64,000 nucleotides of DNA from Escherichia coli (lineage in GTDB: Bacteria; Pseudomonadota; Gammaproteobacteria; Enterobacterales; Enterobacteriaceae), in the NCBI RefSeq assembly GCF_016026235.1, contig NZ_CP065613.1, one strand, 5' to 3'. Shown piece by piece: positions 20,860-57,570 of this stretch. The notes under the pieces are model-generated. The model did no database searches and was not told the DNA's origin. It saw only the letters and a program-made list of their open reading frames with translations. The translations under genes were made by a program, and so were the position numbers. Within the stretch, counting starts at the first letter, position 1, and every line of letters starts with the position of its first letter.

Positions 20860-20964
20860 CTAGCCTGTCCGTTCAATAAGCAGAACGGACAAAACCAGCA
20901 CAACCGCAATGGCAAAAAACGATGACGTGATAATCAGTGTCTCGACGAACATTTGATCGTTCAT
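20860..20964 (-). CDS. yoaI: small membrane protein YoaI (34 aa)
   Basis: Manual translation [34 protein letters not shown]; below ORF-track cutoff; its stop abuts the yeaK stop. Confidence 0.75.
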
Positions 20965-21133
20965 AGTATGCCCCCGGGAGATAGCTGTTTTCACGTTATT
21001 GTTAGCGTGCACAAATGGCAGTTTGATGACAGTTCGCCTGATTTTTTATGCAAAAAACGTAAAGATTTTCTACTTCCTTCCTGCAGCAAGCGTAAAGTAA
21101 GCAGGCTTATTATTTTTTGGCAAGGAAACCACG

Positions 21134-21580
21134 ATGTTTGATGTCACTTTGCTGATCCTGCTCGGGTTAGCTGCGCTGGGCTTTATCAGTCATAACACCA
21201 CTGTCGCCGTTTCAATTCTGGTGTTGATCATTGTCCGCGTCACACCGTTAAGCACCTTTTTCCCGTGGATTGAAAAACAGGGGCTAAGTATCGGGATAAT
21301 CATTCTGACGATTGGCGTTATGGCCCCCATCGCCAGCGGGACGCTACCGCCCTCAACCTTGATTCACTCGTTTCTGAACTGGAAATCGCTGGTGGCAATT
21401 GCAGTAGGCGTTATTGTCTCCTGGCTGGGTGGGCGCGGCGTGACGTTAATGGGCAGCCAGCCGCAACTGGTTGCTGGGCTGCTGGTGGGCACTGTTTTAG
21501 GCGTAGCGCTGTTTCGCGGCGTACCGGTTGGCCCGCTTATTGCCGCGGGTCTGGTTTCGCTGATTGTGGGGAAACAGTAG
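21134..21580 (+). CDS. yeaL: DUF441 inner-membrane protein
   Basis: 148-aa hydrophobic ORF. Confidence 0.85.
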
Positions 21581-22358
21581 TTAATCCCGCAATATATCGG
21601 CCTGGCGTTTGCCCCAGGCCTTTCTTAAACATAGTAATAAAGGCCGTTGTTGAATCATACCCCAGCGTATGAGCAACTTTCTGTACAGTATCGCCTTTCA
21701 CTAATCCCTGAAGCGCCATAATCAGCTGTAACTGCTGTCGCCACTGGCGAAAACTCAACCCCGTCTCTTTTACTATCAGTCGGGCAAGATTGCGTTCACT
21801 CATCGCAAAAAAGCCAGCCCATTGCCCCAATGACCCCCACTCGACGGGCTCTTTCGCCATCATCTCCACCATCGCGCGGATTTTAGGATGAGAAGAAACG
21901 GGTAGGTGCAGCTGTTGTTGTGGCTGCTGAGGGAGTTCATCAAACAGGACCTGAATTAATCTGCGGGTCATCGGCTCAGCACGCTGAGTCGTCGTCCTGT
22001 TTGCCAGAGTTAAAATTAATTCCCGGCATAAGGGCGATATTTTCAATGTGCAACAGGTTGTCGGCATTGTCACTGCGCTGGGTTCGATAAACAGAAAACA
22101 GAGTTCAGCGTTAGCTGTCACTTGATTGCTATGTTCCACCCCGCCCGGTATCCAAACCGCATATTGCGGCGGCACCATCCACAAAGCATTTTCCACCGTA
22201 CAGGTAATTGCACCATGTAATGCTAGTATCAGCTGTCCTTTGCGGTGCTGATGTACAGGACTGGTTAACTCATCCGTTCCGGCGTGAATACAAAATGCGA
22301 CCGCGGCTTCATGGTGTCGGTCGGGTTCATAGCCATTGAGATTCAACCTGTGCATCAT
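21537..22358 (-). CDS. nimR: AraC-family transcriptional regulator NimR
   Basis: 273-aa ORF with cupin-like N-terminus and AraC HTH C-terminus; divergent from nimT. Confidence 0.85.
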
Positions 22359-22454
22359 TTTGTCCGAATTTAGCGATAATTTGTCATTTTAGCTTGATTC
22401 AACATAACAATAAAAACGGTAAGGTACAGCCTCGTTTGTAACAATGAGAAGCAT

Positions 22455-23636
22455 ATGACCTGTTCAACTTCATTAAGCGGCAAAAACAGGATTGTCCTTA
22501 TCGCTGGCATTCTGATGATTGCCACAACATTACGCGTCACCTTTACCGGCGCAGCGCCGTTACTGGATACGATTCGTTCCGCTTACTCGCTGACGACAGC
22601 GCAAACCGGCTTATTAACCACCCTGCCATTATTGGCCTTTGCGCTAATCTCACCTTTGGCTGCCCCGGTGGCGCGACGTTTTGGTATGGAACGTAGCCTG
22701 TTTGCCGCGTTACTTTTGATCTGTGCAGGTATCGCAATTCGTTCTCTCCCTTCGCCTTACTTATTATTTGGCGGTACAGCGGTCATTGGCGGTGGGATTG
22801 CATTAGGCAATGTCTTACTGCCAGGATTAATTAAACGCGATTTCCCTCATTCCGTCGCCAGACTTACCGGCGCATATTCCCTGACAATGGGAGCTGCAGC
22901 GGCACTGGGATCGGCTATGGTCGTGCCGCTGGCTTTGAACGGTTTTGGCTGGCAAGGCGCGTTGTTCATGCTGATGTGTTTTCCTCTGCTGTCTCTTTTT
23001 TTATGGCTGCCACAGTGGCGAAGCCAACAACATGCAAATTTGAGTACCTCGCGCGCCTTACATACTCGGGGTATCTGGCGTTCGCCGCTTGCCTGGCAGG
23101 TCACATTGTTTCTTGGGATCAACTCACTGGTCTATTACGTGATTATTGGCTGGCTTCCGGCGATCCTCATCAGTCACGGCTATAGCGAAGCACAGGCGGG
23201 TTCACTGCATGGTTTGCTGCAACTAGCCACAGCAGCTCCCGGTTTGCTGATCCCTCTTTTCTTACATCATGTGAAAGATCAGCGTGGTATTGCAGCGTTC
23301 GTTGCCTTGATGTGCGCAGTGGGCGCTGTTGGGCTCTGCTTTATGCCAGCGCACGCGATCACCTGGACTCTGCTTTTCGGTTTTGGTTCCGGCGCAACAA
23401 TGATACTGGGGTTGACGTTCATTGGTCTTCGGGCAAGTTCTGCGCATCAGGCGGCGGCACTCTCGGGGATGGCACAATCCGTCGGGTATTTGCTGGCAGC
23501 CTGTGGGCCGCCGCTGATGGGTAAAATACACGATGCTAACGGTGACTGGTCCGTACCACTGATGGGTGTTGCAATACTTTCACTACTGATGGCGATTTTC
23601 GGACTTTGCGCCGGGAGAGACAAAGAAATTCGCTAA
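22455..23636 (+). CDS. nimT: MFS efflux transporter NimT
   Basis: 393-aa polytopic ORF. Confidence 0.85.
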   Translation: MTCSTSLSGKNRIVLIAGILMIATTLRVTFTGAAPLLDTIRSAYSLTTAQTGLLTTLPLLAFALISPLAAPVARRFGMERSLFAALLLICAGIAIRSLPSPYLLFGGTAVIGGGIALGNVLLPGLIKRDFPHSVARLTGAYSLTMGAAAALGSAMVVPLALNGFGWQGALFMLMCFPLLSLFLWLPQWRSQQHANLSTSRALHTRGIWRSPLAWQVTLFLGINSLVYYVIIGWLPAILISHGYSEAQAGSLHGLLQLATAAPGLLIPLFLHHVKDQRGIAAFVALMCAVGAVGLCFMPAHAITWTLLFGFGSGATMILGLTFIGLRASSAHQAAALSGMAQSVGYLLAACGPPLMGKIHDANGDWSVPLMGVAILSLLMAIFGLCAGRDKEIR

Positions 23637-23690
23637 TATCCGGTGCTATAGTGACGTGACAAATCATGCGTGAAAGGGAGAACAAACACG

Positions 23691-24038
23691 ATGAATATTC
23701 AGTGCAAACGCGTTTATGATCCGGCTGAACAGAGCGATGGTTATCGCGTACTGGTCGACCGCCTCTGGCCGCGCGGTATCAAAAAAACCGATTTAGCCCT
23801 TGATGAGTGGGATAAAGAAATCACGCCGTCAACGGAACTGCGCAAAGCCTTTCACGGCGAAGTCGTCGATTTTGCAACCTTTCGCGAGCAATATCTTGCA
23901 GAACTGGCGCAACACGAGCAAGAAGGAAAGCGGCTGGCGGACATCGCCAAAAAACAGCCGCTGACCCTGCTCTACGCAGCAAAAAACACCACGCAGAACC
24001 ATGCGCTGGTGCTGGCCGACTGGCTACGTAGCTTGTGA
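23691..24038 (+). CDS. yeaO: DUF488 protein YeaO
   Basis: Start placed at MNIQCKRVYD (115 aa). Confidence 0.8.
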   Translation: MNIQCKRVYDPAEQSDGYRVLVDRLWPRGIKKTDLALDEWDKEITPSTELRKAFHGEVVDFATFREQYLAELAQHEQEGKRLADIAKKQPLTLLYAAKNTTQNHALVLADWLRSL

Positions 24039-24059
24039 TTTTAGTACAGCATCCGGCGG

Positions 24060-24314
24060 TTATTTTTCACCAGCCGGATGGTCCCGTCGCCACAATGCCC
24101 ATTCATCAATCGTTTCACCGCCCGGTAATTTGCAATTGTTGCTGACCCCTTGCGCTGTCGACACTGGAATGAGCGTCCCGCCCTTCTGCTGGCAATAGAC
24201 CGACGCCGGATTTGCCATACCAATCTGCGGCGGTTTAGGTGCTTCTGGCTGAGAAGAGGTTGAACAACCAGCCAGGACCAGCAAGCAAGGCAAAGCAAAA
24301 CTGATAATTTTCAT
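24060..24314 (-). CDS. yoaF: DUF333 lipoprotein YoaF
   Basis: 84-aa ORF with lipobox LAGC. Confidence 0.85.
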   Translation of the reverse strand: MKIISFALPCLLVLAGCSTSSQPEAPKPPQIGMANPASVYCQQKGGTLIPVSTAQGVSNNCKLPGGETIDEWALWRRDHPAGEK

Positions 24315-24496
24315 TTATTGATCTCACTCATTTATCTACGCTTAGAGTATCGCGGTATCGTTTTGTTTTGCAGCACTATTTTTATTACATTCACTCAAAA
24401 CATATTACGTCTTGTTTCATCTTTGTTGGTGATGTTTTATCATGCCTGCAAAGATTAAATAATCAGCATTTACCCGCCGTATCCTGGAGTTGTTTC

Positions 24497-25522
24497 GTGT
24501 CAGATCAGATTATCGCCCGCGTCTCGCAATCCCTTGCCAAAGAACAGTCACTGGAAAGTCTGGTCCGACAGCTTCTGGAGATGCTGGAAATGGTCACTGA
24601 TATGGAATCAACCTACCTGACCAAAGTGGATGTCGAAGCGCGCCTGCAGCATATTATGTTTGCCCGTAACAGCCAGAAAATGCACATCCCGGAGAATTTT
24701 ACCGTCTCGTGGGATTACTCGTTATGCAAACGCGCCATTGATGAAAACTGCTTTTTCAGCGATGAAGTCCCTGACCGTTGGGGCGACTGTATTGCGGCAC
24801 GCAATCTTGGCATCACCACATTTCTGAGCACGCCAATTCACTTACCGGATGGATCATTCTATGGCACGCTTTGCGCCGCCAGCAGTGAGAAGCGCCAGTG
24901 GAGTGAACGCGCGGAACAGGTTTTACAGTTATTCGCCGGACTGATTGCACAATATATTCAAAAAGAGGCGTTGGTTGAACAGCTGCGCGAAGCCAATGCC
25001 GCGCTGATTGCGCAATCGTATACCGACTCGTTAACCGGGCTACCGAATCGGCGGGCGATTTTTGAAAATCTGACAACACTGTTTTCCCTCGCCCAGCATC
25101 TTAACCATAAGATAATGATCGCGTTTATCGATCTGGATAACTTCAAATTAATCAATGATCGTTTTGGTCATAATAGTGGCGATCTGTTTCTCATTCAGGT
25201 TGGCGAGCGCCTTAATACGCTCCAGCAAAATGGCGAAGTTATTGGTCGTCTCGGTGGTGATGAGTTTTTGGTTGTTTCACTAAACAACGAGAATGCGGAT
25301 ATTTCGTCGCTGCGAGAACGTATTCAACAGCAAATACGTGGAGAATATCACTTAGGTGATGTTGATTTGTATTATCCCGGTGCCAGTCTTGGCATAGTAG
25401 AAGTCGATCCTGAAACGACCGATGCAGACAGTGCCCTGCATGCTGCCGATATCGCGATGTATCAGGAGAAAAAACACAAACAGAAAACACCTTTTGTCGC
25501 GCATCCAGCGCTACATTCCTGA
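24497..25522 (+). CDS. dgcP: diguanylate cyclase DgcP
   Basis: GTG start with GGAG upstream (341 aa); GAF-like N-terminus and GGDEF domain (RLGGDEF). Confidence 0.85.
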   Translation: MSDQIIARVSQSLAKEQSLESLVRQLLEMLEMVTDMESTYLTKVDVEARLQHIMFARNSQKMHIPENFTVSWDYSLCKRAIDENCFFSDEVPDRWGDCIAARNLGITTFLSTPIHLPDGSFYGTLCAASSEKRQWSERAEQVLQLFAGLIAQYIQKEALVEQLREANAALIAQSYTDSLTGLPNRRAIFENLTTLFSLAQHLNHKIMIAFIDLDNFKLINDRFGHNSGDLFLIQVGERLNTLQQNGEVIGRLGGDEFLVVSLNNENADISSLRERIQQQIRGEYHLGDVDLYYPGASLGIVEVDPETTDADSALHAADIAMYQEKKHKQKTPFVAHPALHS

Positions 25523-25554
25523 GGCGTATTCACATCCTTTTGATTGGTGATAAC

Positions 25555-25653
25555 ATGCGAATCGGTATTATTTTTCCGGTTGTAATCTTCATTACAGCGG
25601 TCGTATTTTTAGCATGGTTTTTTATTGGCGGCTATGCTGCCCCGGGAGCATAA
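25555..25653 (+). CDS. yoaK: small membrane protein YoaK (32 aa)
   Basis: Manual translation MRIGIIFPVVIFITAVVFLAWFFIGGYAAPGA*. Confidence 0.7.
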   Translation: MRIGIIFPVVIFITAVVFLAWFFIGGYAAPGA

Positions 25654-25655
25654 AG

Positions 25656-25730
25656 ATGAAAAAAACAACGATTATTATGATGGGTGTGGCGATTATTGTC
25701 GTACTCGGCACTGAGCTGGGATGGTGGTAA
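25656..25730 (+). CDS. yoaJ: small membrane protein YoaJ (24 aa)
   Basis: Manual translation MKKTTIIMMGVAIIVVLGTELGWW*. Confidence 0.7.
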   Translation: MKKTTIIMMGVAIIVVLGTELGWW

Positions 25731-25743
25731 CGTCACCTCTAAA

Positions 25744-25790
25744 AAATAGCAAAGGCTGCCTGTGTGCAGCCTTTGTGCAATTTAAGCGTT
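25744..25790. terminator. bidirectional terminator between yoaJ and yeaQ
   Basis: Hairpin CAAAGGCTGCCTGTGTGCAGCCTTTG. Confidence 0.5.
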
Positions 25791-26037
25791 AACTTTTAAT
25801 CTTCCTGTAGATAAATAGCACGACAATCGCACCAATAACGGCAACCACGAAGCTGCCAAAATTGAAGCCATCGACTTTACCAAAGCCAAACAGCGTGCTG
25901 ATCCAACCGCCGACTACGGCACCGACTATCCCCAGCAGGATAGTCATAAAGAATCCACCACCATCTTTACCTGGCATGATCCACTTCGCCAGAATACCGG
26001 CAATAAGCCCAAAAATAATCCATGACAGAATGCCCAT
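25789..26037 (-). CDS. yeaQ: GlsB/YeaQ/YmgE-family stress membrane protein
   Basis: 82-aa glycine-rich membrane ORF. Confidence 0.85.
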   Translation of the reverse strand: MGILSWIIFGLIAGILAKWIMPGKDGGGFFMTILLGIVGAVVGGWISTLFGFGKVDGFNFGSFVVAVIGAIVVLFIYRKIKS

Positions 26038-26184
26038 TGTTTCCTCACTTATCTGTTTTGCATTAGCGGGTTAGTCGCTGATAAAAAGCATAGCACAACA
26101 TCGGGAGGGCAAGATTTGTGACGAGCATCACGGAGGATTTTTTTGCGATGGCGCAGAAATTACGCCATCAACGATCAGTGATAA

Positions 26185-26367
26185 TTACCAACCACAAACA
26201 TCATGTTCGTTTTCCGTGTCATAAGAACGCACGGTATTCACCAGATCTTTTATCACTTCAGCCGCCACTTCTGGCACCAGCAAAGTCATCGGCGTCTCTG
26301 TTTCATAATCGACAGAAACGCCATTGCTGTTATTGGTGACGGTCACGGTATACGTTGCTTTACCCAT
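26185..26367 (-). CDS. yoaG: DUF1869 protein YoaG
   Basis: 60-aa ORF MGKATYTVTVTNNSNG... Confidence 0.85.
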   Translation of the reverse strand: MGKATYTVTVTNNSNGVSVDYETETPMTLLVPEVAAEVIKDLVNTVRSYDTENEHDVCGW

Positions 26368-26370
26368 GAT

Positions 26371-26730
26371 TCATTTCCCGTTATGAATGACTTTCCGTTG
26401 TTGCGCACCTTCCATCAGGACTTCAGGAGCCACGAAGAAGTCAATGTTGAAATAAGTATCGTCAGTCATGGCTTCAATGTTGTGCCACTTTTCTGGAGGG
26501 AACACCGCAAACTGCCCCGCTTCGATAAGGATCACCTGATCAGGCTCTGCACTGTGTTCATCAGCGTAGCCGAGATATTTGACCGCCCCATGCATAACGG
26601 AAAGGCGTGGGTAAACCCCCGGGCGCGTTCCTTTATCAAGATGACGTTCGAATATTCCGGCAGGCGCAGTTTGTTTATTCCAGAAAGGTGTTGAGCGCGT
26701 ATGAATATAATTCTGTGGGATTTGCAGCAT
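26371..26730 (-). CDS. yeaR: DUF1971 protein YeaR
   Basis: 119-aa ORF; yeaR-yoaG operon arrangement. Confidence 0.85.
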   Translation of the reverse strand: MLQIPQNYIHTRSTPFWNKQTAPAGIFERHLDKGTRPGVYPRLSVMHGAVKYLGYADEHSAEPDQVILIEAGQFAVFPPEKWHNIEAMTDDTYFNIDFFVAPEVLMEGAQQRKVIHNGK

Positions 26731-26902
26731 CCTTTTCCCTCCTTCGGTGAATGCGCTGAAAACGGTTTATTCCAGCCGTTTCAGGGTACGCCTGATAATT
26801 TGCATTTTAAATACCATTTATTGGTTACTTTTTAGCACCATATCAGAGAAGAATCAGGGAGGATTATAGATGGGAAGCCCGCGACAACGCGGGCTGAAAG
26901 CA

Positions 26903-27610
<708 letters not shown>

Positions 27611-27667
27611 TTAGAAAGGTGAAAATCAGGTTTTAATCTGATATCAACCCGATAATTGAATCATGAA

Positions 27668-28591
27668 TCAGGCATGTTCCAGTGAAAAATTCGGGTAGTG
27701 CTCGGCAAAATACTGGCGTAAAAATTCTACCGTTATCCGCACTTTCGCTGACGTCGCCAGCCTTGAAACATAAACGGCCCAGACGTTCGCTGGCTGGTAA
27801 TATTCCGGTAGCACTTGCACTAAATGACCACTGGCAATGTTTTCGCTAACATCCCACCAGGAACGCAGAGCAATCCCCTGCCCATCGAGACACCACTGAT
27901 GGACAATTTCTCCATGATTAGACGACAGTGGGCCGGTGACTTTAATCGCATGGTGGCCTTCTTTATTGCGTAATTGCCAGACACCAAAAGGATGATCGCG
28001 CTCTTTAATGACCAGGCACGGCAATGCAGAAAGATCGGTTAAATGTTTCGGCGCGCCATGTTGCGCAATAAATTCCGGCGACGCGCAGAGAATGCGGTAA
28101 TTGGTCGCCAGTTTGCGGGCGATTAAATTAGGGGCAATGTCATCGCCAATGCGAATATCGAGATCGACACCTTCATTGACCAAATCGACCAGCCGGTCTT
28201 CCACATCAAAACGTAATTCCAGTTGCGGATACGCCTTCGCCAGCGCTGATAACGCCGGAGCCACCACCTGTCGTCCAAAACCAAAGCTGCTGATAATACG
28301 CAGCATCCCCTGTGGCACCTGACGCACGTCAGAAAGTTCGTCCATCATCTGACCGACATCCTGCAAAATCCGCTGCGCCCATTCATAAATCCGCTCTCCT
28401 TCTTCGGTAATGGTGACGCGGCGGGTGGTGCGGTGTAACAACACCACGTTTAGCGTTTGCTCCAGCAAGGCGATGCGCTTGCTGACGAACGCCGGTGAAA
28501 CGCCCAGTTCTTCCGCCACGGCGGCAAAACCAGCCCGGCGAGCCACCAGCATAAAGACGCGCAAATCATTCAGCAGCGGTAAATTATTCAT
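27668..28591 (-). CDS. dmlR: LysR-family regulator DmlR
   Basis: Start placed at MNNLPLLNDLRVF (307 aa); divergent from dmlA. Confidence 0.85.
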   Translation of the reverse strand: MNNLPLLNDLRVFMLVARRAGFAAVAEELGVSPAFVSKRIALLEQTLNVVLLHRTTRRVTITEEGERIYEWAQRILQDVGQMMDELSDVRQVPQGMLRIISSFGFGRQVVAPALSALAKAYPQLELRFDVEDRLVDLVNEGVDLDIRIGDDIAPNLIARKLATNYRILCASPEFIAQHGAPKHLTDLSALPCLVIKERDHPFGVWQLRNKEGHHAIKVTGPLSSNHGEIVHQWCLDGQGIALRSWWDVSENIASGHLVQVLPEYYQPANVWAVYVSRLATSAKVRITVEFLRQYFAEHYPNFSLEHA

Positions 28592-28693
28592 GATTCGTGT
28601 TTTATGTTTCACCAGTTACGGGGATTAATTCCTTTTCAGTCAATTATAGGATGGTGATGTTGTCAATTTTGATGGTCAGGAAGTGAGAACCCA

Positions 28694-29779
28694 ATGATGA
28701 AAACGATGCGTATTGCTGCGATCCCGGGAGACGGGATTGGCAAAGAAGTCCTTCCTGAAGGGATTCGCGTGTTACAGGCTGCCGCTGAGCGCTGGGGCTT
28801 CGCCTTGAGTTTTGAGCAAATGGAGTGGGCGAGCTGCGAGTATTACAGCCATCACGGTAAAATGATGCCGGACGACTGGCATGAGCAACTTAGCCGTTTC
28901 GACGCCATCTATTTTGGTGCCGTCGGCTGGCCGGACACCGTTCCGGACCATATTTCGTTGTGGGGTTCGCTGCTGAAATTTCGTCGTGAATTCGACCAGT
29001 ACGTCAACCTGCGCCCGGTTCGTCTCTTTCCTGGCGTTCCCTGCCCGCTGGCGGGAAAACAGCCTGGCGACATCGATTTTTACGTGGTCAGGGAAAACAC
29101 CGAAGGCGAATATTCCTCGCTCGGCGGTAGAGTGAATGAAGGTACAGAGCATGAAGTCGTCATTCAGGAATCGGTATTTACGCGTCGTGGTGTCGATCGC
29201 ATTTTGCGTTATGCCTTCGAACTTGCGCAAAGCCGCCCACGTAAGACGCTAACTTCTGCCACTAAATCAAACGGTTTAGCCATCAGCATGCCGTACTGGG
29301 ATGAGCGAGTGGAAGCAATGGCCGAGAATTACCCGGAGATCCGCTGGGACAAGCAGCATATTGATATTCTCTGCGCGCGTTTTGTGATGCAGCCGGAACG
29401 CTTCGATGTGGTGGTGGCCTCCAATTTGTTTGGCGATATCCTTTCCGATCTTGGCCCAGCCTGCACCGGCACCATTGGCATTGCCCCATCCGCCAACCTG
29501 AATCCGGAACGCACTTTCCCGTCGCTCTTCGAGCCTGTCCACGGTTCCGCGCCGGATATCTACGGGAAAAATATTGCTAACCCTATCGCCACAATTTGGG
29601 CCGGTGCAATGATGCTCGATTTTCTCGGCAATGGTGATGAGCGTTTCCAGCAAGCGCATAACGGTATTCTGGCAGCGATTGAAGAAGTGATTGCTCACGG
29701 GCCGAAAACACCGGATATGGAAGGCAGTGCCACCACGCCACAGGTTGCCGACGCGATTTGCAAAATTATTTTGCGTTAA
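28694..29779 (+). CDS. dmlA: D-malate / tartrate dehydrogenase (decarboxylating)
   Basis: 361-aa isocitrate/isopropylmalate dehydrogenase-family ORF. Confidence 0.9.
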   Translation: MMKTMRIAAIPGDGIGKEVLPEGIRVLQAAAERWGFALSFEQMEWASCEYYSHHGKMMPDDWHEQLSRFDAIYFGAVGWPDTVPDHISLWGSLLKFRREFDQYVNLRPVRLFPGVPCPLAGKQPGDIDFYVVRENTEGEYSSLGGRVNEGTEHEVVIQESVFTRRGVDRILRYAFELAQSRPRKTLTSATKSNGLAISMPYWDERVEAMAENYPEIRWDKQHIDILCARFVMQPERFDVVVASNLFGDILSDLGPACTGTIGIAPSANLNPERTFPSLFEPVHGSAPDIYGKNIANPIATIWAGAMMLDFLGNGDERFQQAHNGILAAIEEVIAHGPKTPDMEGSATTPQVADAICKIILR

Positions 29780-29799
29780 GGTCAAACCAGTTTATTTGA

Positions 29800-29826
29800 A
29801 CCGCGTCACTGACGCGGTTTTTTTAT
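29800..29826 (+). terminator. rho-independent terminator of dmlA
   Basis: Hairpin ACCGCGTCACTGACGCGGT followed by T8. Confidence 0.8.
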
Positions 29827-30029
29827 TCGTTCTTTGCAGTTAATAACCTGCGTCATTTCACCTTTTATTGTTTCCGTTTCGTGTTTTATGGCTTTCCGTA
29901 TTCTTAATTGTTTAATTTATGTAACATGCAAATAATCAATTTGTTAAACACAACATACAACTCATTACCCTGCAAATAATTACAACTGGCAAAAGCCAGA
30001 GACGGGCTTTTATGCCCAGGAGATGACTC

Positions 30030-31640
30030 ATGATGAGCAATGTTAAGAAAAAAGATGTGCCGCTGATAAGCATCAGCCTGGTGGCCATTCTTTTCATCGC
30101 AGCTGCATTAAGCCTTTTCCCACAACAATCGGCCGACGCGGCCAACGCAATATACACTTTTGTTACGCGTACGTTAGGTTCCGCCGTACAGGTATTGGTT
30201 TTGCTGGCAATGGGACTGGTGATTTATTTAGCCACCAGTAAATACGGCAATATTCGTCTTGGCGAAGGAAAACCGGAATACAGCACGCTCTCCTGGCTGT
30301 TTATGTTTATTTGTGCCGGTTTAGGTTCTTCTACGCTTTATTGGGGGGTTGCTGAATGGGCCTATTATTATCAAACACCTGGATTAAATATCGCACCGCG
30401 TTCACAACAGGCACTCGAATTTAGCGTTCCCTACTCTTTCTTCCACTGGGGCATCAGCGCCTGGGCAACTTATACGCTGGCCTCATTAATCATGGCTTAT
30501 CACTTTCATGTGCGGAAAAACAAAGGTCTGAGCCTTTCCGGCATTATTGCTGCTATTACCGGCGTTCGCCCGCAAGGCCCATGGGGAAAACTGGTCGATT
30601 TGATGTTCCTGATCGCCACTGTCGGCGCACTGACCATTTCCCTTGTTGTTACCGCAGCAACCTTTACCCGTGGGCTTTCCGCGCTGACCGGTTTACCCGA
30701 TAACTTCACCGTGCAGGCATTTGTGATCCTGCTTTCCGGCGGCATTTTTTGCCTAAGCTCGTGGATTGGTATCAACAACGGTTTGCAACGTCTGAGCAAA
30801 ATGGTTGGCTGGGGCGCGTTCCTGCTGCCATTACTGGTGCTGATTGTCGGCCCAACCGAATTTATTACCAACAGCATCATCAATGCCATCGGCCTGACCA
30901 CGCAAAACTTCCTGCAAATGAGCTTATTCACCGATCCGCTTGGCGATGGTTCATTTACCCGCAACTGGACCGTTTTCTACTGGCTGTGGTGGATCTCATA
31001 CACCCCTGGCGTAGCAATGTTTGTCACCCGCGTTTCCCGCGGTCGTAAGATTAAAGAAGTTATCTGGGGACTGATCCTCGGCAGCACCGTCGGTTGCTGG
31101 TTCTTCTTTGGCGTAATGGAAAGCTATGCCATTCATCAGTTTATCAATGGCGTAATCAACGTCCCACAGGTGCTGGAAACACTGGGCGGCGAAACAGCTG
31201 TGCAGCAAGTTCTGATGTCGTTGCCAGCCGGTAAATTGTTCCTCGCCGCATACCTGGGTGTGATGATTATTTTCCTTGCCTCGCATATGGATGCGGTGGC
31301 CTACACCATGGCTGCGACCAGTACGCGTAATCTCCAGGAAGGTGACGATCCTGACCGTGGGCTGCGTCTTTTCTGGTGCGTGGTGATCACTCTGATCCCG
31401 CTTTCCATCTTGTTTACCGGTGCTTCGCTGGAAACGATGAAAACCACCGTCGTGCTCACAGCCCTTCCCTTCCTCGTCATTTTACTGGTGAAAGTCGGCG
31501 GATTTATTCGCTGGCTGAAACAGGATTACGCCGACATTCCGGCTCATCAAGTTGAACATTATCTCCCGCAGACACCGGTTGAAGCCCTGGAAAAAACACC
31601 AGTGCTCCCTGCGGGAACCGTATTCAAAGGCGACAACTGA
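30030..31640 (+). CDS. yeaV: BCCT-family transporter YeaV
   Basis: 536-aa ORF from an ATG with strong AGGAG at 7-nt spacing; the K-12 annotation as I recall it (481 aa) would correspond to an internal TTG at 30195. Confidence 0.8.
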
Positions 31641-31671
31641 GCGCCATCATCCTAACGATAAAGGTATCCCT

Positions 31672-32796
31672 ATGAGCAATCTGAGCCCTGACTTTGTACT
31701 ACCCGAAAATTTTTGCGCTAACCCGCAAGAGGCGTGGACCATTCCTGCCCGTTTTTATACCGATCAGAACGCGTTTGAACACGAAAAAGAGAACGTCTTC
31801 GCCAAAAGCTGGATTTGCGTCGCTCACAGCAGCGAACTGGCGAATGCCAATGATTATGTGACGCGTGAGATCATTGGCGAAAGCATCGTGCTGGTACGCG
31901 GTCGTGATAAGGTTTTGCGCGCGTTCTATAACGTGTGTCCGCACCGTGGTCATCAGTTGTTGAGCGGTGAAGGAAAAGCAAAAAATGTGATTACCTGCCC
32001 GTATCACGCATGGGCATTCAAACTCGATGGCAATCTGGCCCATGCACGTAACTGCGAAAACGTCGCCAATTTCGATAGCGACAAAGCGCAACTGGTTCCG
32101 GTGCGTCTGGAAAAATATGCCGGATTCGTCTTCATCAACATGGACCCCAACGCCACCAGCGTAGAAGATCAGTTACCCGGTCTGGGCGCGAAAGTGCTGG
32201 AAGCCTGCCCGGAAGTCCACGATCTGAAACTGGCGGCCCGCTTTACCACCCGCACGCCTGCCAACTGGAAGAACATTGTCGATAACTATCTCGAGTGCTA
32301 TCACTGTGGTCCGGCGCATCCAGGTTTCTCCGACTCCGTACAGGTTGATCGTTACTGGCACACCATGCACGGTAACTGGACGCTGCAATACGGTTTCGCC
32401 AAACCGTCCGAACAGTCGTTTAAATTTGAAGAGGGTACGGATGCGGCATTCCACGGTTTCTGGCTGTGGCCGTGCACGATGCTGAACGTCACCCCGATCA
32501 AAGGGATGATGACGGTCATTTATGAATTCCCGGTGGATTCTGAAACTACCCTGCAAAACTACGATATTTACTTCACCAATGAAGAGTTAACCGACGAGCA
32601 AAAATCGCTGATTGAGTGGTATCGCGATGTGTTCCGTCCGGAAGATTTACGTCTGGTTGAAAGCGTACAGAAAGGGCTGAAATCGCGTGGCTATCGTGGT
32701 CAGGGGCGCATCATGGCCGACAGTAGCGGTAGTGGCATTTCCGAACATGGTATCGCCCATTTCCATAATCTGCTGGCGCAGGTGTTTAAGGACTAA
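31672..32796 (+). CDS. yeaW: Rieske-type carnitine monooxygenase oxygenase subunit
   Basis: Start placed at MSNLSPDF (374 aa); Rieske motif CPHRGH...CPYHAW. Confidence 0.9.
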   Translation: MSNLSPDFVLPENFCANPQEAWTIPARFYTDQNAFEHEKENVFAKSWICVAHSSELANANDYVTREIIGESIVLVRGRDKVLRAFYNVCPHRGHQLLSGEGKAKNVITCPYHAWAFKLDGNLAHARNCENVANFDSDKAQLVPVRLEKYAGFVFINMDPNATSVEDQLPGLGAKVLEACPEVHDLKLAARFTTRTPANWKNIVDNYLECYHCGPAHPGFSDSVQVDRYWHTMHGNWTLQYGFAKPSEQSFKFEEGTDAAFHGFWLWPCTMLNVTPIKGMMTVIYEFPVDSETTLQNYDIYFTNEELTDEQKSLIEWYRDVFRPEDLRLVESVQKGLKSRGYRGQGRIMADSSGSGISEHGIAHFHNLLAQVFKD

Positions 32797-32851
32797 TGAC
32801 ATCGGCGGCGGTATTTTCCGCCGCTGGGCTGATTTTTGATGGAGTACAGCA

Positions 32852-33817
32852 ATGTCAGACTATCAAATGTTTGAAGTACAGGTGAGTCAGGTGGAACCGC
32901 TTACCGAACAGGTGAAACGCTTCACGCTGGTGGCAACCGATGGCAAACCGCTGCCTGCGTTCACCGGAGGAAGTCACATCATTGTGCAGATGAGCGATGG
33001 TGATAACCAGTACAGCAATGCGTATTCACTACTGAGTTCGCCGCATGACACCTCTTGTTATCAGATTGCCGTTCGGCTGGAGGAAAACTCGCGCGGCGGT
33101 TCCCGCTTTTTGCATCAGCAGGTAAAAGTGGGCGATCGGTTAACGATTTCAACGCCTAATAACCTGTTTGCGCTAATTCCCTCAGCCAGAAAGCATCTGT
33201 TTATCGCGGGCGGTATTGGTATCACCCCTTTCCTGTCGCACATGGCAGAGCTGCAACACAGCGACGTCGACTGGCAGCTACATTACTGCTCGCGAAATCC
33301 AGAAAGTTGCGCATTTCGTGATGAGCTAGTCCAGCATCCGCAGGCTGAGAAAGTCCATTTGCATCATTCATCAACCGGAACACGACTGGAATTAGCGCGA
33401 TTATTGGCGGATATCGAACCTGGCACACACGTTTATACCTGTGGCCCCGAGGCGCTAATTGAAGCGGTAAGAAGTGAAGCTGCGCGTCTGGACATCGCCG
33501 CCGATACGCTGCACTTTGAGCAATTTGCTATCGAAGACAAAACCGGCGATGCATTTACCCTGGTGCTTGCCCGTTCCGGAAAAGAGTTTGTGGTGCCGGA
33601 AGAGATGACTATTTTGCAGGTTATTGAAAATAATAAAGCCGCGAAAGTGGAATGTTTATGTCGTGAAGGGGTATGCGGAACCTGCGAAACAGCAATACTG
33701 GAAGGTGAAGCTGACCATCGGGATCAATATTTTAGCGATGAAGAGCGTGCCAGCCAGCAAAGTATGTTGATCTGTTGTTCGCGTGCGAAGGGTAAACGCC
33801 TGGTGTTGGATTTGTAG
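32852..33817 (+). CDS. yeaX: carnitine monooxygenase reductase subunit (FMN / 2Fe-2S)
   Basis: 321-aa ORF with C-terminal plant-type ferredoxin cysteines. Confidence 0.9.
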   Translation: MSDYQMFEVQVSQVEPLTEQVKRFTLVATDGKPLPAFTGGSHIIVQMSDGDNQYSNAYSLLSSPHDTSCYQIAVRLEENSRGGSRFLHQQVKVGDRLTISTPNNLFALIPSARKHLFIAGGIGITPFLSHMAELQHSDVDWQLHYCSRNPESCAFRDELVQHPQAEKVHLHHSSTGTRLELARLLADIEPGTHVYTCGPEALIEAVRSEAARLDIAADTLHFEQFAIEDKTGDAFTLVLARSGKEFVVPEEMTILQVIENNKAAKVECLCREGVCGTCETAILEGEADHRDQYFSDEERASQQSMLICCSRAKGKRLVLDL

Positions 33818-33819
33818 TT

Positions 33820-33870
33820 TGCCGAAGCCGGATGTGGCGCTGAGCGCGCCCAGTCCGGCTTCGGAAGATT
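33820..33870. terminator. bidirectional terminator between yeaX and rnd
   Basis: Long hairpin GCCGAAGCCGGAT...GTCCGGCTTCGG between convergent genes. Confidence 0.6.
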
Positions 33871-34998: not shown

Positions 34999-35067
34999 AT
35001 TGTTTTCTCTTTAGTGGGCGTCAAAAAAAACGCCGGATTAACCGGCGTCTGACGACTGACTTAACGC

Positions 35068-36753
35068 TCAGGCTTTATTGTCCACTTTGCCGCGCGCTTC
35101 GTCACGTAATTCTCGTCGCAAAATTTTTCCGACGTTAGATTTCGGTAACTCATCACGAAACTCCACCAGCTTCGGTACTTTGTATCCCGTGAGCTGACGG
35201 CGGCAAAAAGTCACCAGTGACTCTTCGGTAAGCGATGGATCTTTTTTCACTACGAAGATTTTCACCGCTTCACCACTGGAGCCGGAAGGTACGCCAACAG
35301 CCGCGACTTCCTGTACGCCAGGATGCTGCATGACGACATCTTCAATCTCGTTGGGATAGACGTTAAAACCGGAAACCAGAATCATGTCTTTTTTACGATC
35401 GACAATGCGCAGGAATCCTTCTTCATCCATTACCGCGATGTCGCCGGTGTGTAACCAGCCATTTTTGATGATTTCATCGGTAGCATCGGGACGCTGCCAG
35501 TAACCCAGCATCACCTGCGGTCCTTTGACACAAAGCTCACCCGGTTGACCTGGTGGTACTTCATTATCATCATCATCCACCAGTTTGGCTTCCGTCGACG
35601 GCACCGGCAAACCGATGCTACCACTATGATAATCAATATCATATGGGTTAACGCTGACCAGCGGCGCACACTCGGTAAGGCCATAGCCTTCCAGCAGATA
35701 CTGTCCTGTCAGTTTCACCCAACGCTCTGCCACCACTTGCTGCACTGGCATCCCTCCGCCTGCGGAAAGATGCAGACTGGAGAAATCCAGCTGCTGGAAC
35801 TCTTTATTGTTCAGCAACGCATTGAACAAGGTGTTAACGCCCGTGATAGCGGTAAACGGATATTTCGCTAACTCTTTTACCAACCCTGGAATATCGCGCG
35901 GGTTAGTGATAAGCAGGTTCTGCCCACCCAGTTCGATAAACAGCAGGCAGTTAATGGTCAGGGCAAAAATGTGATACAGCGGCAGCGCCGTCACCACCAG
36001 CTCTTTGCCCGGATGCAACAGCGGACCATAGGTCGCGTTAACCTGTTCCAGGTTCGCCAGCATATTGCGGTGAGTCAGCATCGCGCCTTTCGCCACACCA
36101 GTGGTGCCGCCGGTGTATTGCAGAAAAGCTAAATCTTCCGGCACCAGTTCGGGTTTGACGTACTGCATCCGGTAGCCGTTATGCAGTGCGCTACGAAATG
36201 AAATGGCATCTGGCAGATGGTATTTCGGCACCAAACGCTTGATGTATTTAACAACGAAATTGACTACCGTGCCTTTTGCCGTAGATAGCTGATCGCCCAT
36301 ACGGGTCAGAATTACGTGCTGAACGGCGGTTTTATCAACCACTTTTTCCAGTGTGTGAGCAAAGTTAGACACGATAACAATCGCCGATGCGCCGCTATCG
36401 TTAAGCTGATGCTCAAGCTCACGCGGGGTATACAACGGGTTAACGTTTACGACGATCATCCCGGCACGCAAAATGCCAAACAGCGCCACCGGATATTGCA
36501 ATAAATTAGGCATCATCAACGCAACGCGATCGCCTTTCTTCAGCCCCAACCCTTGTTGCAAATAAGCGGCAAACGCGCGACTGCGTTCTTCCAGCTTGCG
36601 GAAGGTCATCACCTCCCCCATATTCACAAACGCAGGCTGATCGGCGTAGCGCGCGACCGACTGCTCAAACATATCTACCAGAGATTGATAACGGTCAGGG
36701 TTGATCTCCGTCGGAACGTCCGCGGGATAACGGTTAAGCCAAACCTTCTTCAA
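35068..36753 (-). CDS. fadD: long-chain fatty acid-CoA ligase FadD
   Basis: 561 aa from a TTG start ([14 protein letters not shown]); AMP-binding motif [11 protein letters not shown]; the ORF-track start 22 codons upstream is rejected. Confidence 0.9.
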
Positions 36754-40718: not shown

Positions 40719-41113
40719 GCTTTATCGAAGCAAAATAAGTCAGACGATAATTTATCGATAATACTGGTCGGTTTTACATAAATCGACCAGAGAATAAGAT
40801 ATTACTGTTGATGCTTCTGCTAATTCATTATTTATATTTATAATTTCAATTTTATCTATAAAACTAACTATATAAATAAACATAAACATGCCGTTGTGTT
40901 CGCCCTTTGATTAGCAACTCTGGTTTTCTTTCTTAGCTGAACAATCTGGTTATAGCGTGCGGACTGACCGTTAATTTTCTCCATCTTACTGGATAACACA
41001 CCATGAACTGCTACTTTTAAAACACCTGAATGTCAACAGGTTAACTCGTGCCATATCGGGTGATGCTGCCAACTTACTGATTTAGTGTATGATGGTGTTT
41101 TTGAGGTGCTCCA

Positions 41114-41389
41114 GTGGCTTCTGTTTCTATCAGCTGTCCCTCCTGTTCAGCTACTGACGGGGTGGTGCGTAACGGCAAAAGCACCGCCGGACATCAGCGC
41201 TATCTCTGCTCTCACTGCCGTAAAACATGGCAACTGCAGTTCACTTACACCGCTTCTCAACCCGGTACGCACCAGAAAATCATTGATATGGCCATGAATG
41301 GCGTTGGATGCCGAGCAACTGCCCGCATTATGGGCGTTGGCCTCAACACGATTTTACGTCACTTAAAAAACTCAGGCCGCAGTCGGTAA
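41114..41389 (+). CDS. insA: IS1 InsA
   Basis: 91-aa ORF; differs from the 3342-3617 copy at 5 residues. Confidence 0.9.
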
Positions 41390-41811
41390 CCTCGCGCATA
41401 CAGCCGGGCAGTGACGTCATCGTCTGCGCGGAAATGGACGAACAGTGGGGCTATGTCGGGGCTAAATCGCGCCAGCGCTGGCTGTTTTACGCGTATGACA
41501 GTCTCCGGAAGACGGTTGTTGCGCACGTATTCGGTGAACGCACTATGGCGACGCTGGGGCGTCTTATGAGCCTGCTGTCACCCTTTGACGTGGTGATATG
41601 GATGACGGATGGCTGGCCGCTGTATGAATCCCGCCTGAAGGGAAAGCTGCACGTAATCAGCAAGCGATATACGCAGCGAATTGAGCGGCATAACCTGAAT
41701 CTGAGGCAGCACCTGGCACGGCTGGGACGGAAGTCGCTGTCGTTCTCAAAATCGGTGGAGCTGCATGACAAAGTCATCGGGCATTATCTGAACATAAAAC
41801 ACTATCAATAA
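41308..41811 (+). CDS. insB: IS1 transposase InsB' frame
   Basis: 167-aa ORF overlapping insA in the -1 frame. Confidence 0.9.
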
Positions 41812-41837
41812 GTTGGAGTCATTACCGGATTAGTGTG

Positions 41838-42017
41838 TTACTCGTCTTCATCCTCAAAACGCGCCACGATTCGCTCGCCGGAGTGGTTGGCACGCAGCTC
41901 TTCTGCCACCAGCGCGATTGCCTGGCCGCTGCTCATCCCTTGTGCCATCAGTTCCTGGATCCGCTCGACAGCTTTTTGCTGCTGTTCATGGGTGAGTGAA
42001 GGTAAACCTGCAAACAT
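41838..42017 (-). CDS. yoaH: UPF0181 small protein YoaH (59 aa)
   Basis: Manual translation [59 protein letters not shown]; below ORF-track cutoff; stop is 11 bp from the IS1 end. Confidence 0.8.
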
Positions 42018-42090
42018 TGTTAACTCCTGCTAAATTGTTGGCGCTAATTATTTCATGCTACCCGGCACATAGCCAGTAGAGTCAGGACTG

Positions 42091-43452: not shown

Positions 43453-43455
43453 GAC

Positions 43456-44034: not shown

Positions 44035-44217
44035 CTATACTTATCTTTACATCTACAAAACACTACTTGAGACAATCATCGCAATATTAGTTAAATCGCG
44101 GTTTTTGATTAGTTTAATTCATGTGAATAGTTAAGCCAGTCGCCGCGTTCCCTCTTACACTATGCGCTGTTATTAGTTCGTTACTGGAAGTCCAGTCACC
44201 TTGTCAGGAGTATTATC

Positions 44218-45582
44218 GTGATTAGTCTATTCGACATGTTTAAGGTGGGGATTGGTCCCTCATCTTCCCATACCGTAGGGCCTATGAAGGCGGGTAAACA
44301 GTTCGTCGATGATCTGGTCGAAAAAGGCTTACTGGATAGCGTTACTCGCGTTGCCGTGGACGTTTATGGTTCACTGTCGCTGACGGGTAAAGGCCACCAC
44401 ACCGATATCGCCATTATTATGGGTCTTGCAGGTAACGAACCTGCCACCGTGGATATCGACAGTATTCCCGGTTTTATTCGCGACGTAGAAGAGCGCGAAC
44501 GTCTGCTGCTGGCACAGGGACGGCATGAAGTGGATTTCCCGCGCGACAACGGGATGCGTTTTCATAACGGCAACCTGCCGCTGCATGAAAACGGTATGCA
44601 AATCCACGCCTATAACGGCGATGAAGTCGTCTACAGCAAAACTTATTATTCCATCGGCGGCGGTTTTATCGTCGATGAAGAACACTTTGGTCAGGATGCT
44701 GCCAACGAAGTGAGCGTGCCGTATCCGTTCAAATCTGCCACCGAACTGCTCGCGTACTGTAATGAAACCGGCTATTCGCTGTCTGGTCTCGCTATGCAGA
44801 ACGAACTGGCGCTGCACAGCAAGAAAGAGATCGACGAGTATTTCGCGCATGTCTGGCAAACCATGCAGGCATGTATCGATCGCGGGATGAACACCGAAGG
44901 TGTACTGCCAGGCCCGCTGCGCGTGCCACGTCGTGCGTCTGCCCTGCGCCGGATGCTGGTTTCCAGCGATAAACTGTCTAACGATCCGATGAATGTCATT
45001 GACTGGGTAAACATGTTTGCGCTGGCAGTTAACGAAGAAAACGCCGCCGGTGGTCGTGTGGTAACTGCGCCAACCAACGGTGCCTGCGGTATCGTTCCGG
45101 CAGTGCTGGCTTACTATGACCACTTTATTGAATCGGTCAGCCCGGACATCTATACCCGTTACTTTATGGCAGCGGGCGCGATTGGTGCATTGTATAAAAT
45201 GAACGCCTCTATTTCCGGTGCGGAAGTTGGTTGCCAGGGCGAAGTGGGTGTTGCCTGTTCAATGGCTGCTGCGGGTCTTGCAGAACTGCTGGGCGGTAGC
45301 CCGGAACAGGTTTGCGTGGCGGCGGAAATTGGCATGGAACACAACCTTGGTTTAACCTGCGACCCGGTTGCAGGGCAGGTTCAGGTGCCGTGCATTGAGC
45401 GTAATGCCATTGCCTCTGTGAAGGCGATTAACGCCGCACGGATGGCTCTGCGCCGCACCAGTGCACCGCGCGTCTCGCTGGATAAGGTCATCGAAACGAT
45501 GTACGAAACCGGTAAGGACATGAACGCCAAATACCGCGAAACCTCACGCGGTGGTCTGGCAATCAAAGTCCAGTGTGACTAA
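44218..45582 (+). CDS. sdaA: L-serine dehydratase 1
   Basis: 454-aa [26 protein letters not shown] from a GTG start. Confidence 0.9.
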
Positions 45583-45712
45583 TACTTCTTACTCGCCCAT
45601 CTGCAACGGATGGGCGAATTTATCCCCGCTTTCTCGTCTGCTGTAATATTCCCCACTACACTTCCACTGTTGCGTCAGGCGTTTGTCGCCATACGCTTAC
45701 AGGGTGGCCCGC

Positions 45713-55059: not shown

Positions 55060-55865
55060 TAAGAACGCTGCCAGAGGTGAATATTAAAGTCCGTCTGGCA
55101 GTCGAACACTTCTTTTGCTGCCAGTGTTTGCCAGACTTCTGGCTTCGCACGCCAGGCAAACGGCGTCATCTGCAATAATGCGACGGCTTCATCACCGCGA
55201 AGACGCATCGGATAACACAACTCCGCACTCTGCTGTAATGTAAAACCTTCCAGTTGTTCTGCATGAGGTGCATGAAGATGTACTTCATTGTAAATCAGCC
55301 CCTTCAGCTCCATCAAATGTCGCGGTCCCGGCGTGGCAGTAATGACCCAGCCGCCGGGCTTCACTACTCGTGCTAATTCTTCTGCTTTACACGGCGCGTA
55401 AATACGTATTATGGCGTCCATACTGGTATCGGAAAACGGCAAACGGTGGCTGGAAGCGACACAAAAAGTGACCTGCGGATAGCGTTTCGCCGCCGCTTTT
55501 ATCGCTACCTTCGAAACATCCAGACCAAACGTGGTGATTTCGGGCAACGCATCGGCAAATGCGTGTGTGTAATACCCTTCACCACAGCCAATATCCAGCA
55601 CCGCCGTGGCCTTATCATCAAGCCGTTCCCTCAGTTGGGCGACAATTGCATCACGCAGCGGCTGATAATGTCCGGCATCTAAGAATGCGCGGCGTGCTTG
55701 CATCATTTCCGCGCTGTCGCCCGGATCACGAGACCGTTTATGCTGAACGGGCAGCAGATTGACATACCCTTCTTTCGCCATATCAAACTGATGTCGCTGG
55801 GGACAGATATAGCTGTTTTTTTCACGCGAAAGAGGCTGATGGCAAAGTGGACAGGGAAAAGACAT
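55056..55865 (-). CDS. rlmA: 23S rRNA m1G745 methyltransferase
   Basis: 269-aa ORF with N-terminal zinc-binding cysteines and SAM motif LDIGCGEGY. Confidence 0.9.
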
Positions 55866-55956
55866 GACAACTCCGGCAGGATACTAAAGGCCGCAAGTGT
55901 AACGCGAATCACGCGGCGGGCAAATATCCGAACGCCAGGAGCGAAGATAAAGCATA

Positions 55957-55986
55957 GTAAAAAGCCTCGCATTCGACGAGGCTTTA
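55957..55986 (-). terminator. rho-independent terminator of yobF-cspC
   Basis: Minus-strand hairpin AAAGCCTCGTCGAATGCGAGGCTTT followed by TTTAC. Confidence 0.7.
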
Positions 55987-56030
55987 TAGCGAGATTGAAG
56001 CGTATTCACACTTCAGATCAGTGGATTCGA

Positions 56031-56240
56031 TCAGATAGCTGTTACGTTAACAGCTGCCGGACCTTTCTGGCCGTCCTGAATTTCGAACTCAACGTTCTGA
56101 CCTTCAGCCAGAGTTTTGAAGCCATTACCCTGGATAGCGGAGAAGTGTACGAACACGTCTTTGCTGCCATCAGCCGGAGTAATGAAGCCAAAACCTTTAG
56201 ACTCGTTGAACCACTTAACCTGACCTTTAATCTTTGCCAT
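56031..56240 (-). CDS. cspC: cold-shock-domain protein CspC
   Basis: 69-aa [23 protein letters not shown]. Confidence 0.95.
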
Positions 56241-56252
56241 TTGAAAAATTCC

Positions 56253-56396
56253 TTAGATTGTTTTCTTCGCCCGCAGGCATAACATAGATAAAACTGACAC
56301 ATTACTGCATGAGGCACCAATATAAGGCTCGGCAGAGAAGCGGTATTCAACGTCAACGTGTTTACTCAGGACTTCTTTACTGAAAATGCCACACAT
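56253..56396 (-). CDS. yobF: small protein YobF (47 aa)
   Basis: Manual translation [47 protein letters not shown]; immediately upstream of cspC. Confidence 0.75.
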
Positions 56397-57064
56397 AAAC
56401 AGAACTGTACCTCGTTTAACCCGAAATCTGTTATCACATACAACGTTAATTATGGCAAGCCATTTTTAAACATGTCTCGATCAGACGCACAAATCTCGAT
56501 ACGTCTTCCACTTTTTTTGCACACTTATGCAACGGAATACGCGCTGATATATCATTGTGCTTAACCTTGCCAGTTCAGGCAGATACTTAAACTGGCGTAT
56601 TTTCTAACATAGTTCAATAAGTTCAGTTGTTCCAGGCCAGTGGGAGAAGTTATTACATAGTGCGTGCAATATCACATTTTTTGCTATGCAATGAATAAAA
56701 AGTTATATCACTTTTTCTCATAAAACAGTCAGTTAACGGCTATCAATTACCCTAAAGAGAAGTCAATCCCCAAAGGGATTGAAAATTTAAAATAAGAAAA
56801 ATTGATGAATGAGCAAAAAATCAAGAAAGAAACGTTTCGCTAATAAATAATACCACGCTTAATCACAAATCCGATGTAAACATCCTAATAAATTAATGAG
56901 GAAAATATCTTTTTCTGATATCCCGTTACGCAAATAAATAATATGATAATTATTTGAAGTCAGACCAGAGTTTTAATTTGAAGCAGTTGCACCATGGCAG
57001 TGCGTATAATCAGGATGAATTGAGTAACCCTTCAACGACGGGGTTACTCAAGATTGAGGAAGGA

Positions 57065-57352
57065 TTATCGTTCGGCGACCAGACGAATAATATCTTCGTC
57101 TTCAACCGATTTTTGACTCTCAACGGTCTTTTTATCTGCTTTCTCAGGTTCGTTTGCTTCGCACAAACGACGTAACAGTGCATTTTGACGTTTTTGCTGA
57201 TCCAGCAACGCCTCAAGCAGTTCAATCTGTTCGTTAGTCCGTGAACTGGCACGATTGATAAAAAACCACAAGATGAGCCCGATAAGAAGAACCACCACCG
57301 ATACAACCAAAGACGCAATGTTCATCACGCCTGAATTTACAACTTCGTTCAT
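57065..57352 (-). CDS. yebO: small membrane protein YebO
   Basis: 95-aa ORF with N-terminal TM helix. Confidence 0.85.
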   Translation of the reverse strand: MNEVVNSGVMNIASLVVSVVVLLIGLILWFFINRASSRTNEQIELLEALLDQQKRQNALLRRLCEANEPEKADKKTVESQKSVEDEDIIRLVAER

Positions 57353-57426
57353 TTCACCACCTCTGAGTAGAGGCGCTATTCTACCACTGCTGGAGAGGAA
57401 GAAAATCTAGTGCTGAAAAAATGATA

Positions 57427-57570
57427 TCACCACGGGATAAACTGGTTAATGGCACAAATTCCGCTGAAAAATTGTACATCCTGATCGCACATCATGTTGA
57501 ATACCTGCGCCCAAAGCAGCAAGCAAGCCAACACCACGACAACCAGAACGACCCATCGAAACTTTTTCAC
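57427..57570 (-). CDS. mgrB: PhoQ feedback inhibitor MgrB (47 aa)
   Basis: Manual translation from a GTG start: [46 protein letters not shown]. Confidence 0.8.

Follow-up and report, generated by a model that had tools for sequence, protein, structure and literature searches.

How many genuine genes lie hidden between the longer open reading frames (ORFs) of a well-studied bacterial chromosome segment, and by what evidence can they be told from the short frames that chance alone produces? We considered this question for a 64,000-nucleotide stretch of Escherichia coli DNA (contig NZ_CP065613.1 of assembly GCF_016026235.1), here called the window. A first-pass annotation, made from the letters and a list of ORFs no shorter than 60 amino acids, had proposed that six known small-protein genes, yoaI, yoaK, yoaJ, yoaH, yobF and mgrB, lie between positions 20860 and 57570, which are the exact outer ends of yoaI and mgrB. 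The names, lengths and positions that it gave proved to be right on three grounds, namely TBLASTN searches, family profiles and synteny with E. coli K-12. Judged by sequence comparison, the six are almost certainly ordinary intact orthologues of annotated K-12 small-protein genes, joined by a seventh, yoaL, in a conserved segment of the core chromosome.

Identification of the six small-protein genes

We took the reference products from the K-12 genome (NC_000913.3) and used them as TBLASTN queries against the window. Each of the six was matched over its full length, with E-values from 1.5e-13 to 4.8e-35. Five peptides were 100% identical to their K-12 counterparts and the lone “mismatch”, in MgrB, is the GTG start codon shown as V. 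This comparison had been suggested along with the first-pass annotation, and it found all six proteins to have the K-12 sequence (yoaI b1788, yoaK b4676, yoaJ b4675, yoaH b1811, yobF b1824 and mgrB b1826). The order, strands and neighbours of the genes (Table 1) are also those of K-12. Synteny is equally exact with strains 88-3493 and FDAARGOS_943, and the RefSeq annotations of all three genomes place the same genes at the same positions. More broadly, the window is collinear with K-12 MG1655 at ∼1.874–1.909 Mb (yeaK to mgrB) and with 88-3493, the gene order running from yeaK to mgrB and onward to prc/proQ. A 20-kb slice of it shows 95–100% identity to essentially all complete E. coli genomes. 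It is an E. coli/Shigella-type chromosome segment.

Family profiles gave the same assignments. The NCBIfam equivalog cut-offs were passed by YoaI (79.8 bits against NF041475, cut-off 45), YoaK (69.1 bits against NF033821, cut-off 32), YoaJ (60.4 bits against NF011343, cut-off 54), YoaH (114.2 bits against NF003476, cut-off 72) and MgrB (89.9 bits against NF007635, cut-off 40). The Pfam gathering scores were passed by YoaH (100.9 bits against PF03701, cut-off 23.5), YobF (105 bits against PF10736, cut-off 25), MgrB (66.3 bits against PF13998, cut-off 27) and YoaL (134.1 bits against PF22867, cut-off 27). YobF had no NCBIfam model match in the profile scan; its Pfam family is YobF/DUF2527, for which the Pfam description line gives DUF2627.

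The reading frames themselves are sound, as no frameshifts or stop codons were found in any of the six. Shine-Dalgarno-like motifs precede yoaK, yoaJ, yoaH and mgrB. Kyte-Doolittle (KD) hydropathy gave one clear transmembrane segment each in YoaI (residues 14–30, mean 2.81), YoaK (best 17-residue stretch 3–19, 2.98), YoaJ and MgrB (residues 7–23, 2.95), a weak one in YobF and none in YoaH. At the DNA level yoaI differs from K-12 by six silent substitutions, at nucleotides 18, 60, 66, 84, 90 and 99, all of them at third codon positions and all synonymous. The chance that six of six differences fall at third positions is about (1/3)^6 = 0.0014, so that the pattern reads as a direct coding signal. 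Of 5426 complete E. coli genomes, 5410 carry yoaI at full length and 5403 the yoaK-yoaJ pair.

Some observations weigh against this identification and were considered along with it. The other five genes are identical to K-12 in DNA sequence, and the within-species coding signal therefore comes from yoaI alone. The ribosome-binding site of yobF has unusual spacing, its GAGG being some 13 nt away from the start codon ATG. A candidate PhoP box upstream of mgrB (57621-57637, minus strand) has two mismatches, and since matches at that level are abundant in the window (32, against 16.5 expected) it carries no weight either way for a PhoP-dependent promoter. For YoaH, no homologue of solved structure reached a meaningful E-value when the Protein Data Bank (PDB) was searched by sequence, and a Foldseek search against the PDB gave no structural neighbour with E < 1. 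Nevertheless, no data contradict the identification of any of the six genes. All six are annotated in K-12, and the opinion that they are not novel was correct: these genes were already known and there is nothing new among them.

Table 1. Positions of the small-protein genes and associated features in the window. Coordinates of the six genes listed first include the stop codon.
Feature	Position	Strand	Description
yoaI	20860..20964	-	34 aa; ATG start, TAG stop; single-pass small membrane protein
yoaK	25555..25653	+	32 aa; small membrane protein; GGTGA upstream of ATG
yoaJ	25656..25730	+	24 aa; small membrane protein
yoaH	41838..42017	-	59 aa; predicted soluble, UPF0181 family; AGGAG ribosome-binding site; divergent from pabB
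yobF	56253..56396	-	47 aa; ends 12 nt upstream of cspC start
mgrB	57427..57570	-	47 aa; GTG start (same as K-12), GGAG 8-11 nt upstream
yoaL	50378..50536	-	52 aa; putative leader peptide of yoaE/mgpA; absent from first-pass annotation
yoaE (mgpA)	48834-50390	-	start overlapped by last yoaL codons
cspC	56031..56240	-	69 aa; same-strand downstream partner of yobF; in ORF list and in K-12 and FDAARGOS_943 annotations
yeaK	20356-20859	+	convergent with yoaI
Pho box-like site CTGTCATCAAACTGCCAT	21015..21032	-	51-68 nt upstream of yoaI start codon
PhoP box TGTTTAACTCCCGTTTA	50570..50586	-	34-50 nt upstream of yoaL start codon; 1 mismatch to consensus
Antisense shadow ORF over yoaH	41833-42033	+	66 aa; covers yoaH completely; in 60-aa track
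Antisense shadow ORF over mgrB	57421-57609	+	62 aa; covers mgrB completely; in 60-aa track
Candidate shared terminator	25750..25775		10-bp GC-rich hairpin between yoaJ and convergent yeaQ
IS1	41059-41826		complete, 768 bp; insA/insB ORFs 41114-41389 and 41308-41811
ISSso6 (IS110 family)	~47316-48832		between pdeD and yoaE; 378-aa transposase ORF 47619-48755 (-)
Mn2+ (yybP-ykoY) riboswitch	54266-54362	+	mntP leader; Rfam 40.1 bits, E = 1.3e-8
sroD (Rfam RF00370)	35024-35109	-	small RNA; 115 bits; rnd-fadD spacer

What a length cutoff hides

It had also been claimed that the 60-amino-acid cutoff of the ORF track hides real genes. This holds in so far as the ORF list, which begins at 60 amino acids, contains none of the six, and length is the only reason for their absence: the mechanical ORFs of yoaI, yoaK, yoaJ, yoaH, yobF and mgrB are 50, 37, 38, 59, 47 and 47 amino acids long, respectively. 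It is, however, half of the story. With the cutoff lowered to 20 amino acids, the segment from 20860 to 57570 contains 446 ORFs of 20–59 amino acids for 6–7 genes, or about 65 false ORFs for each true one. Short ORFs as such are not beyond chance in this segment, whereas the family and K-12 matches are. These numbers indicate that the genes had been recognised through prior knowledge and synteny, and not through ORF length.

The other half of the story concerns frames that pass the cutoff. Both yoaH and mgrB are covered by longer ORFs on the opposite strand that are present in the 60-amino-acid track, and a naive reading of that track would annotate the wrong strand at both loci. None of the antisense ORFs of at least 60 amino acids over yoaH, mgrB, yobF and yoaI had a significant Pfam match, nor did an ORF of 81 amino acids in the leader of mntP.

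A seventh small gene, yoaL, upstream of yoaE

The list of small genes, correct in all six of its entries, was incomplete in that it left out yoaL. In the window this gene is buried in a mechanical ORF of 108 amino acids that starts with GTG (50378-50704). Its product is identical to that of K-12 b4751 at 51 of 52 residues. The single difference, N14S, is common to FDAARGOS_943, and the overlap with the start of yoaE is the same as in K-12.

The yoaL start was placed differently in the past. The gene was originally annotated with 69 codons (69 aa; PMC6001520) and the start was later moved downstream (10.1101/511675, PMC12421838). We noted that the former start codon falls within the PhoP box upstream of the gene, which would fit the shorter annotation. 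The sequence of this box, TGTTTAACTCCCGTTTA, is also that of the site upstream of yoaE which PhoP shields from DNase I digestion in Shigella flexneri (PMC5775216). A stop codon introduced into yoaL strongly reduces expression of a yoaE-lacZ fusion (10.1101/511675; PMC12421838). YoaL would act as a leader peptide, the translation of which is required for full expression of yoaE.

yoaI, a candidate link between the Pho and EnvZ systems

Upstream of yoaI we found a Pho box-like site, CTGTCATCAAACTGCCAT. When the 64-kb window was scanned for CTGTCAT-N4-CTGTCAT with one mismatch or none, this site was the sole match; 0 were expected from 100 shuffles. This predicted Pho box fits the reported control of the gene, since transcription of yoaI is PhoB-dependent (PMC11429745). 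The protein builds up when Mg2+ is low. It binds EnvZ and activates it by way of Glu31, which is required for binding and is one of three invariant residues together with Ser26 and Val27 (PMC11429745). The 34-residue protein encoded here keeps S26, V27 and E31. It may be expected to follow the published course, in which it is transcribed from a PhoB-dependent promoter, builds up at low Mg2+, and binds and activates the EnvZ kinase.

The 3′ end of yoaI is unusual in its arrangement. The stop codons of yeaK, on the plus strand, and yoaI, on the minus strand, adjoin with zero spacer (20857-20862), and no terminator-like site was found near the junction. In this layout the yeaK and yoaI transcripts must either overlap or run into one another.

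The yoaK-yoaJ pair

The start of yoaK lies 33 nt past the dgcP stop codon and that of yoaJ only 2 nt past the yoaK stop codon, the GGGAG ribosome-binding site of yoaJ being located within the end of yoaK. From this arrangement the two are probably translated as a unit. Both have been described as expressed small membrane proteins (10.1101/511675, PMC10470546), and both are cleavable by the protease RseP in some assays and treated as RseP substrates (PMC10470546). YoaK and YoaJ would be single-pass membrane peptides, open to cleavage by RseP and encoded as a tightly spaced pair 3′ of dgcP. Beyond yoaJ, a pattern scan reported a terminator-like site on the minus strand at the hairpin that separates it from yeaQ, which might serve both genes.

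Genes of 24 and 32 codons raise the question of whether they could, above all others of the six, be chance ORFs that have spread by name through annotation pipelines and are not translated. ORFs as short as these are common by chance, as the count of 446 makes plain, and the identity of both genes with K-12 DNA means that the window offers no substitution pattern from which coding could be judged for either. Yet the products exceed the cut-offs of curated, multi-species equivalog models, each has a clear hydrophobic helix, and the ribosome-binding motifs and 2-nt spacing are typical of coupled genes. In addition, tagged YoaK serves as an expression reference (10.1101/511675), both proteins have been studied as RseP substrates (PMC10470546), and detection of chromosomally tagged YoaJ and YoaK has already been reported for K-12. 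We consider it barely credible that the pair is untranslated, and retain yoaK and yoaJ as genuine small-protein genes.

mgrB

The MgrB protein encoded here fits its family's pattern of a transmembrane helix at the N terminus followed by a brief periplasmic tail in which cysteines are conserved. Its cysteines are at positions 16, 28 and 39, of which Cys28 and Cys39 are important. Loss of MgrB is a route to polymyxin resistance in Klebsiella. The K-12 protein, to which ours is identical, is a PhoP-regulated inner-membrane peptide of 47 amino acids that binds and represses PhoQ and so provides negative feedback (PMC2789325). By this identity the same loop is predicted for the present strain: active PhoP would cause MgrB to be made, MgrB would insert into the inner membrane, and the resulting repression of PhoQ would close the circuit.

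yobF and its position before cspC

Induction of YobF in low Mg2+ has been reported, as has post-transcriptional induction in heat shock, and the His-tagged protein fractionates with membranes (PMC11429745). A section heading of the same paper names loss of YobF among the deletions that give a growth defect specific to Mg2+ stress. On these data YobF may be viewed as a membrane-associated, stress-induced protein encoded just 5′ of cspC.

The location of the gene suggests a different possibility, that yobF acts chiefly in cis, adjusting as an upstream ORF the translation or mRNA stability of cspC in the way that yoaL does for yoaE, and not as a trans-acting protein. The end of yobF is separated by only 12 nt from the start of cspC on the same strand, and its heat-shock induction was described as post-transcriptional (PMC11429745). 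Furthermore, the Rfam model for cspA-mRNA (thermoregulator) aligns to 55956-56416 on the minus strand with 135.7 bits, a span that includes cspC and the whole of yobF, and yobF thus takes the position that the 5′ leader would have in a cspA-type transcript. The leader part of this alignment over yobF is weak, however, and the score comes mainly from the csp coding region. Conservation of the YobF peptide is sufficient to sustain a Pfam family of its own, and the membrane association of the tagged protein, together with the listing of its loss under the Mg2+-stress heading (PMC11429745), also speaks against the cis reading. We therefore regard a mainly cis-acting role as unlikely.

yoaH, insertion sequences and the possibility of gene decay

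The product of yoaH was modelled by AlphaFold from its single sequence as a two-helix hairpin with an acidic tail (mean pLDDT 75). It may be a soluble helical-hairpin protein, as yet uncharacterised. The surroundings of yoaH differ from those in K-12 MG1655. There, yoaC lies on 488 bp that a complete IS1 replaces here. Only 11 nt separate the right end of this IS1 from the stop codon of yoaH, so that both yoaC and the native 3′ flank of yoaH are gone. A second difference is the ISSso6 element between pdeD and yoaE, a site at which this element was found in 0 of 5426 complete E. coli genomes. Together, IS1 and ISSso6 suggest a Shigella-like host lineage rich in insertion sequences.

In a lineage of this kind, undergoing gene decay, some of the small genes might have been inactivated. 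In favour of this stand the IS1 next to yoaH, in place of yoaC, and the ISSso6 between pdeD and yoaE. Neither element disrupts any of the small genes, though. Each of the six genes has an undamaged reading frame for the same protein as in K-12, and yoaL is altered by N14S only. The upstream regions with their ribosome-binding sites are likewise retained, as are the PhoP box and the Pho box, and the alteration is confined to the 3′ flank of yoaH. Inactivation of any of these genes thus appears highly improbable, and we continue to treat them as intact orthologues.

Strain-specific features could also reside among the 446 unlisted short ORFs or in the contexts flanked by insertion sequences, for example as altered expression of YoaH caused by IS1 or as an extra small gene in the gap between yobF and yebO (56397-57064). 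This gap contains 15 ORFs of at least 20 amino acids, and promoter and terminator scans of it were not above chance; the short ORFs were not family-searched. No positive evidence was found for either IS1-altered YoaH expression or an extra gene in the gap, and we think a feature of this sort very unlikely.

Other features of the window

Two RNA features were noted. The Mn2+ riboswitch in the mntP leader was missed by the default Rfam scan since its 40.1 bits are under the gathering score of 45. The small RNA sroD is a further known feature within an “empty” gap.

Three candidate small genes were considered and rejected. A 40-amino-acid “hypothetical protein” upstream of mntP, predicted by PGAP in strain 88-3493 and corresponding to 54375-54496 of the window, requires a 1-nt insertion (an extra C) specific to 88-3493, and the frame is broken in both the window and K-12; this part of the sequence belongs to the leader with the Mn2+ riboswitch. 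The gene mntS, considered for this location, is absent from the K-12 annotation of the segment. Lastly, yoaM is a small ORF antisense to nrdAB and lies elsewhere than in this segment (10.1101/511675).

Several further observations concern the window at large. At 29934-30157, in a region that reaches from upstream of yeaV into its start, 225 bp are present here and in 88-3493 and missing from K-12, and the K-12 YeaV protein is shorter (481 aa against 536 aa) for want of them. The ydjG-ydjL cluster makes up the left end of the window (1-8482) and is lacking in 88-3493. Within it, a 167-amino-acid ORF on the minus strand (2920-3423) has the same length as the insB ORF of IS1 at 41308-41811, and a second copy of IS1 is suspected there. 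An AT-rich palindrome downstream of yobD (54060-54141) gave weak matches to the mir-282 model on both strands, which are almost certainly spurious.

Significance of the small genes

The value of this analysis is mainly one of quality control, since an annotation based on prior knowledge proved accurate. It also puts numbers on how far a length cutoff can be trusted, in a part of the chromosome that is well studied and where longer antisense ORFs mask two real genes. The small genes found here include biologically important regulators, all of them already published. YoaI, for its part, connects the Pho and EnvZ systems, as has been published. MgrB and YoaI are founding or recent members of a class of sensor-kinase modulators (MgrB-PhoQ, YoaI-EnvZ, SafA-PhoQ and MzrA-EnvZ), and their sequence features are all kept in this strain. 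YoaK and YoaJ have the single-pass architecture in common with this class but differ from it in having no known kinase partner.

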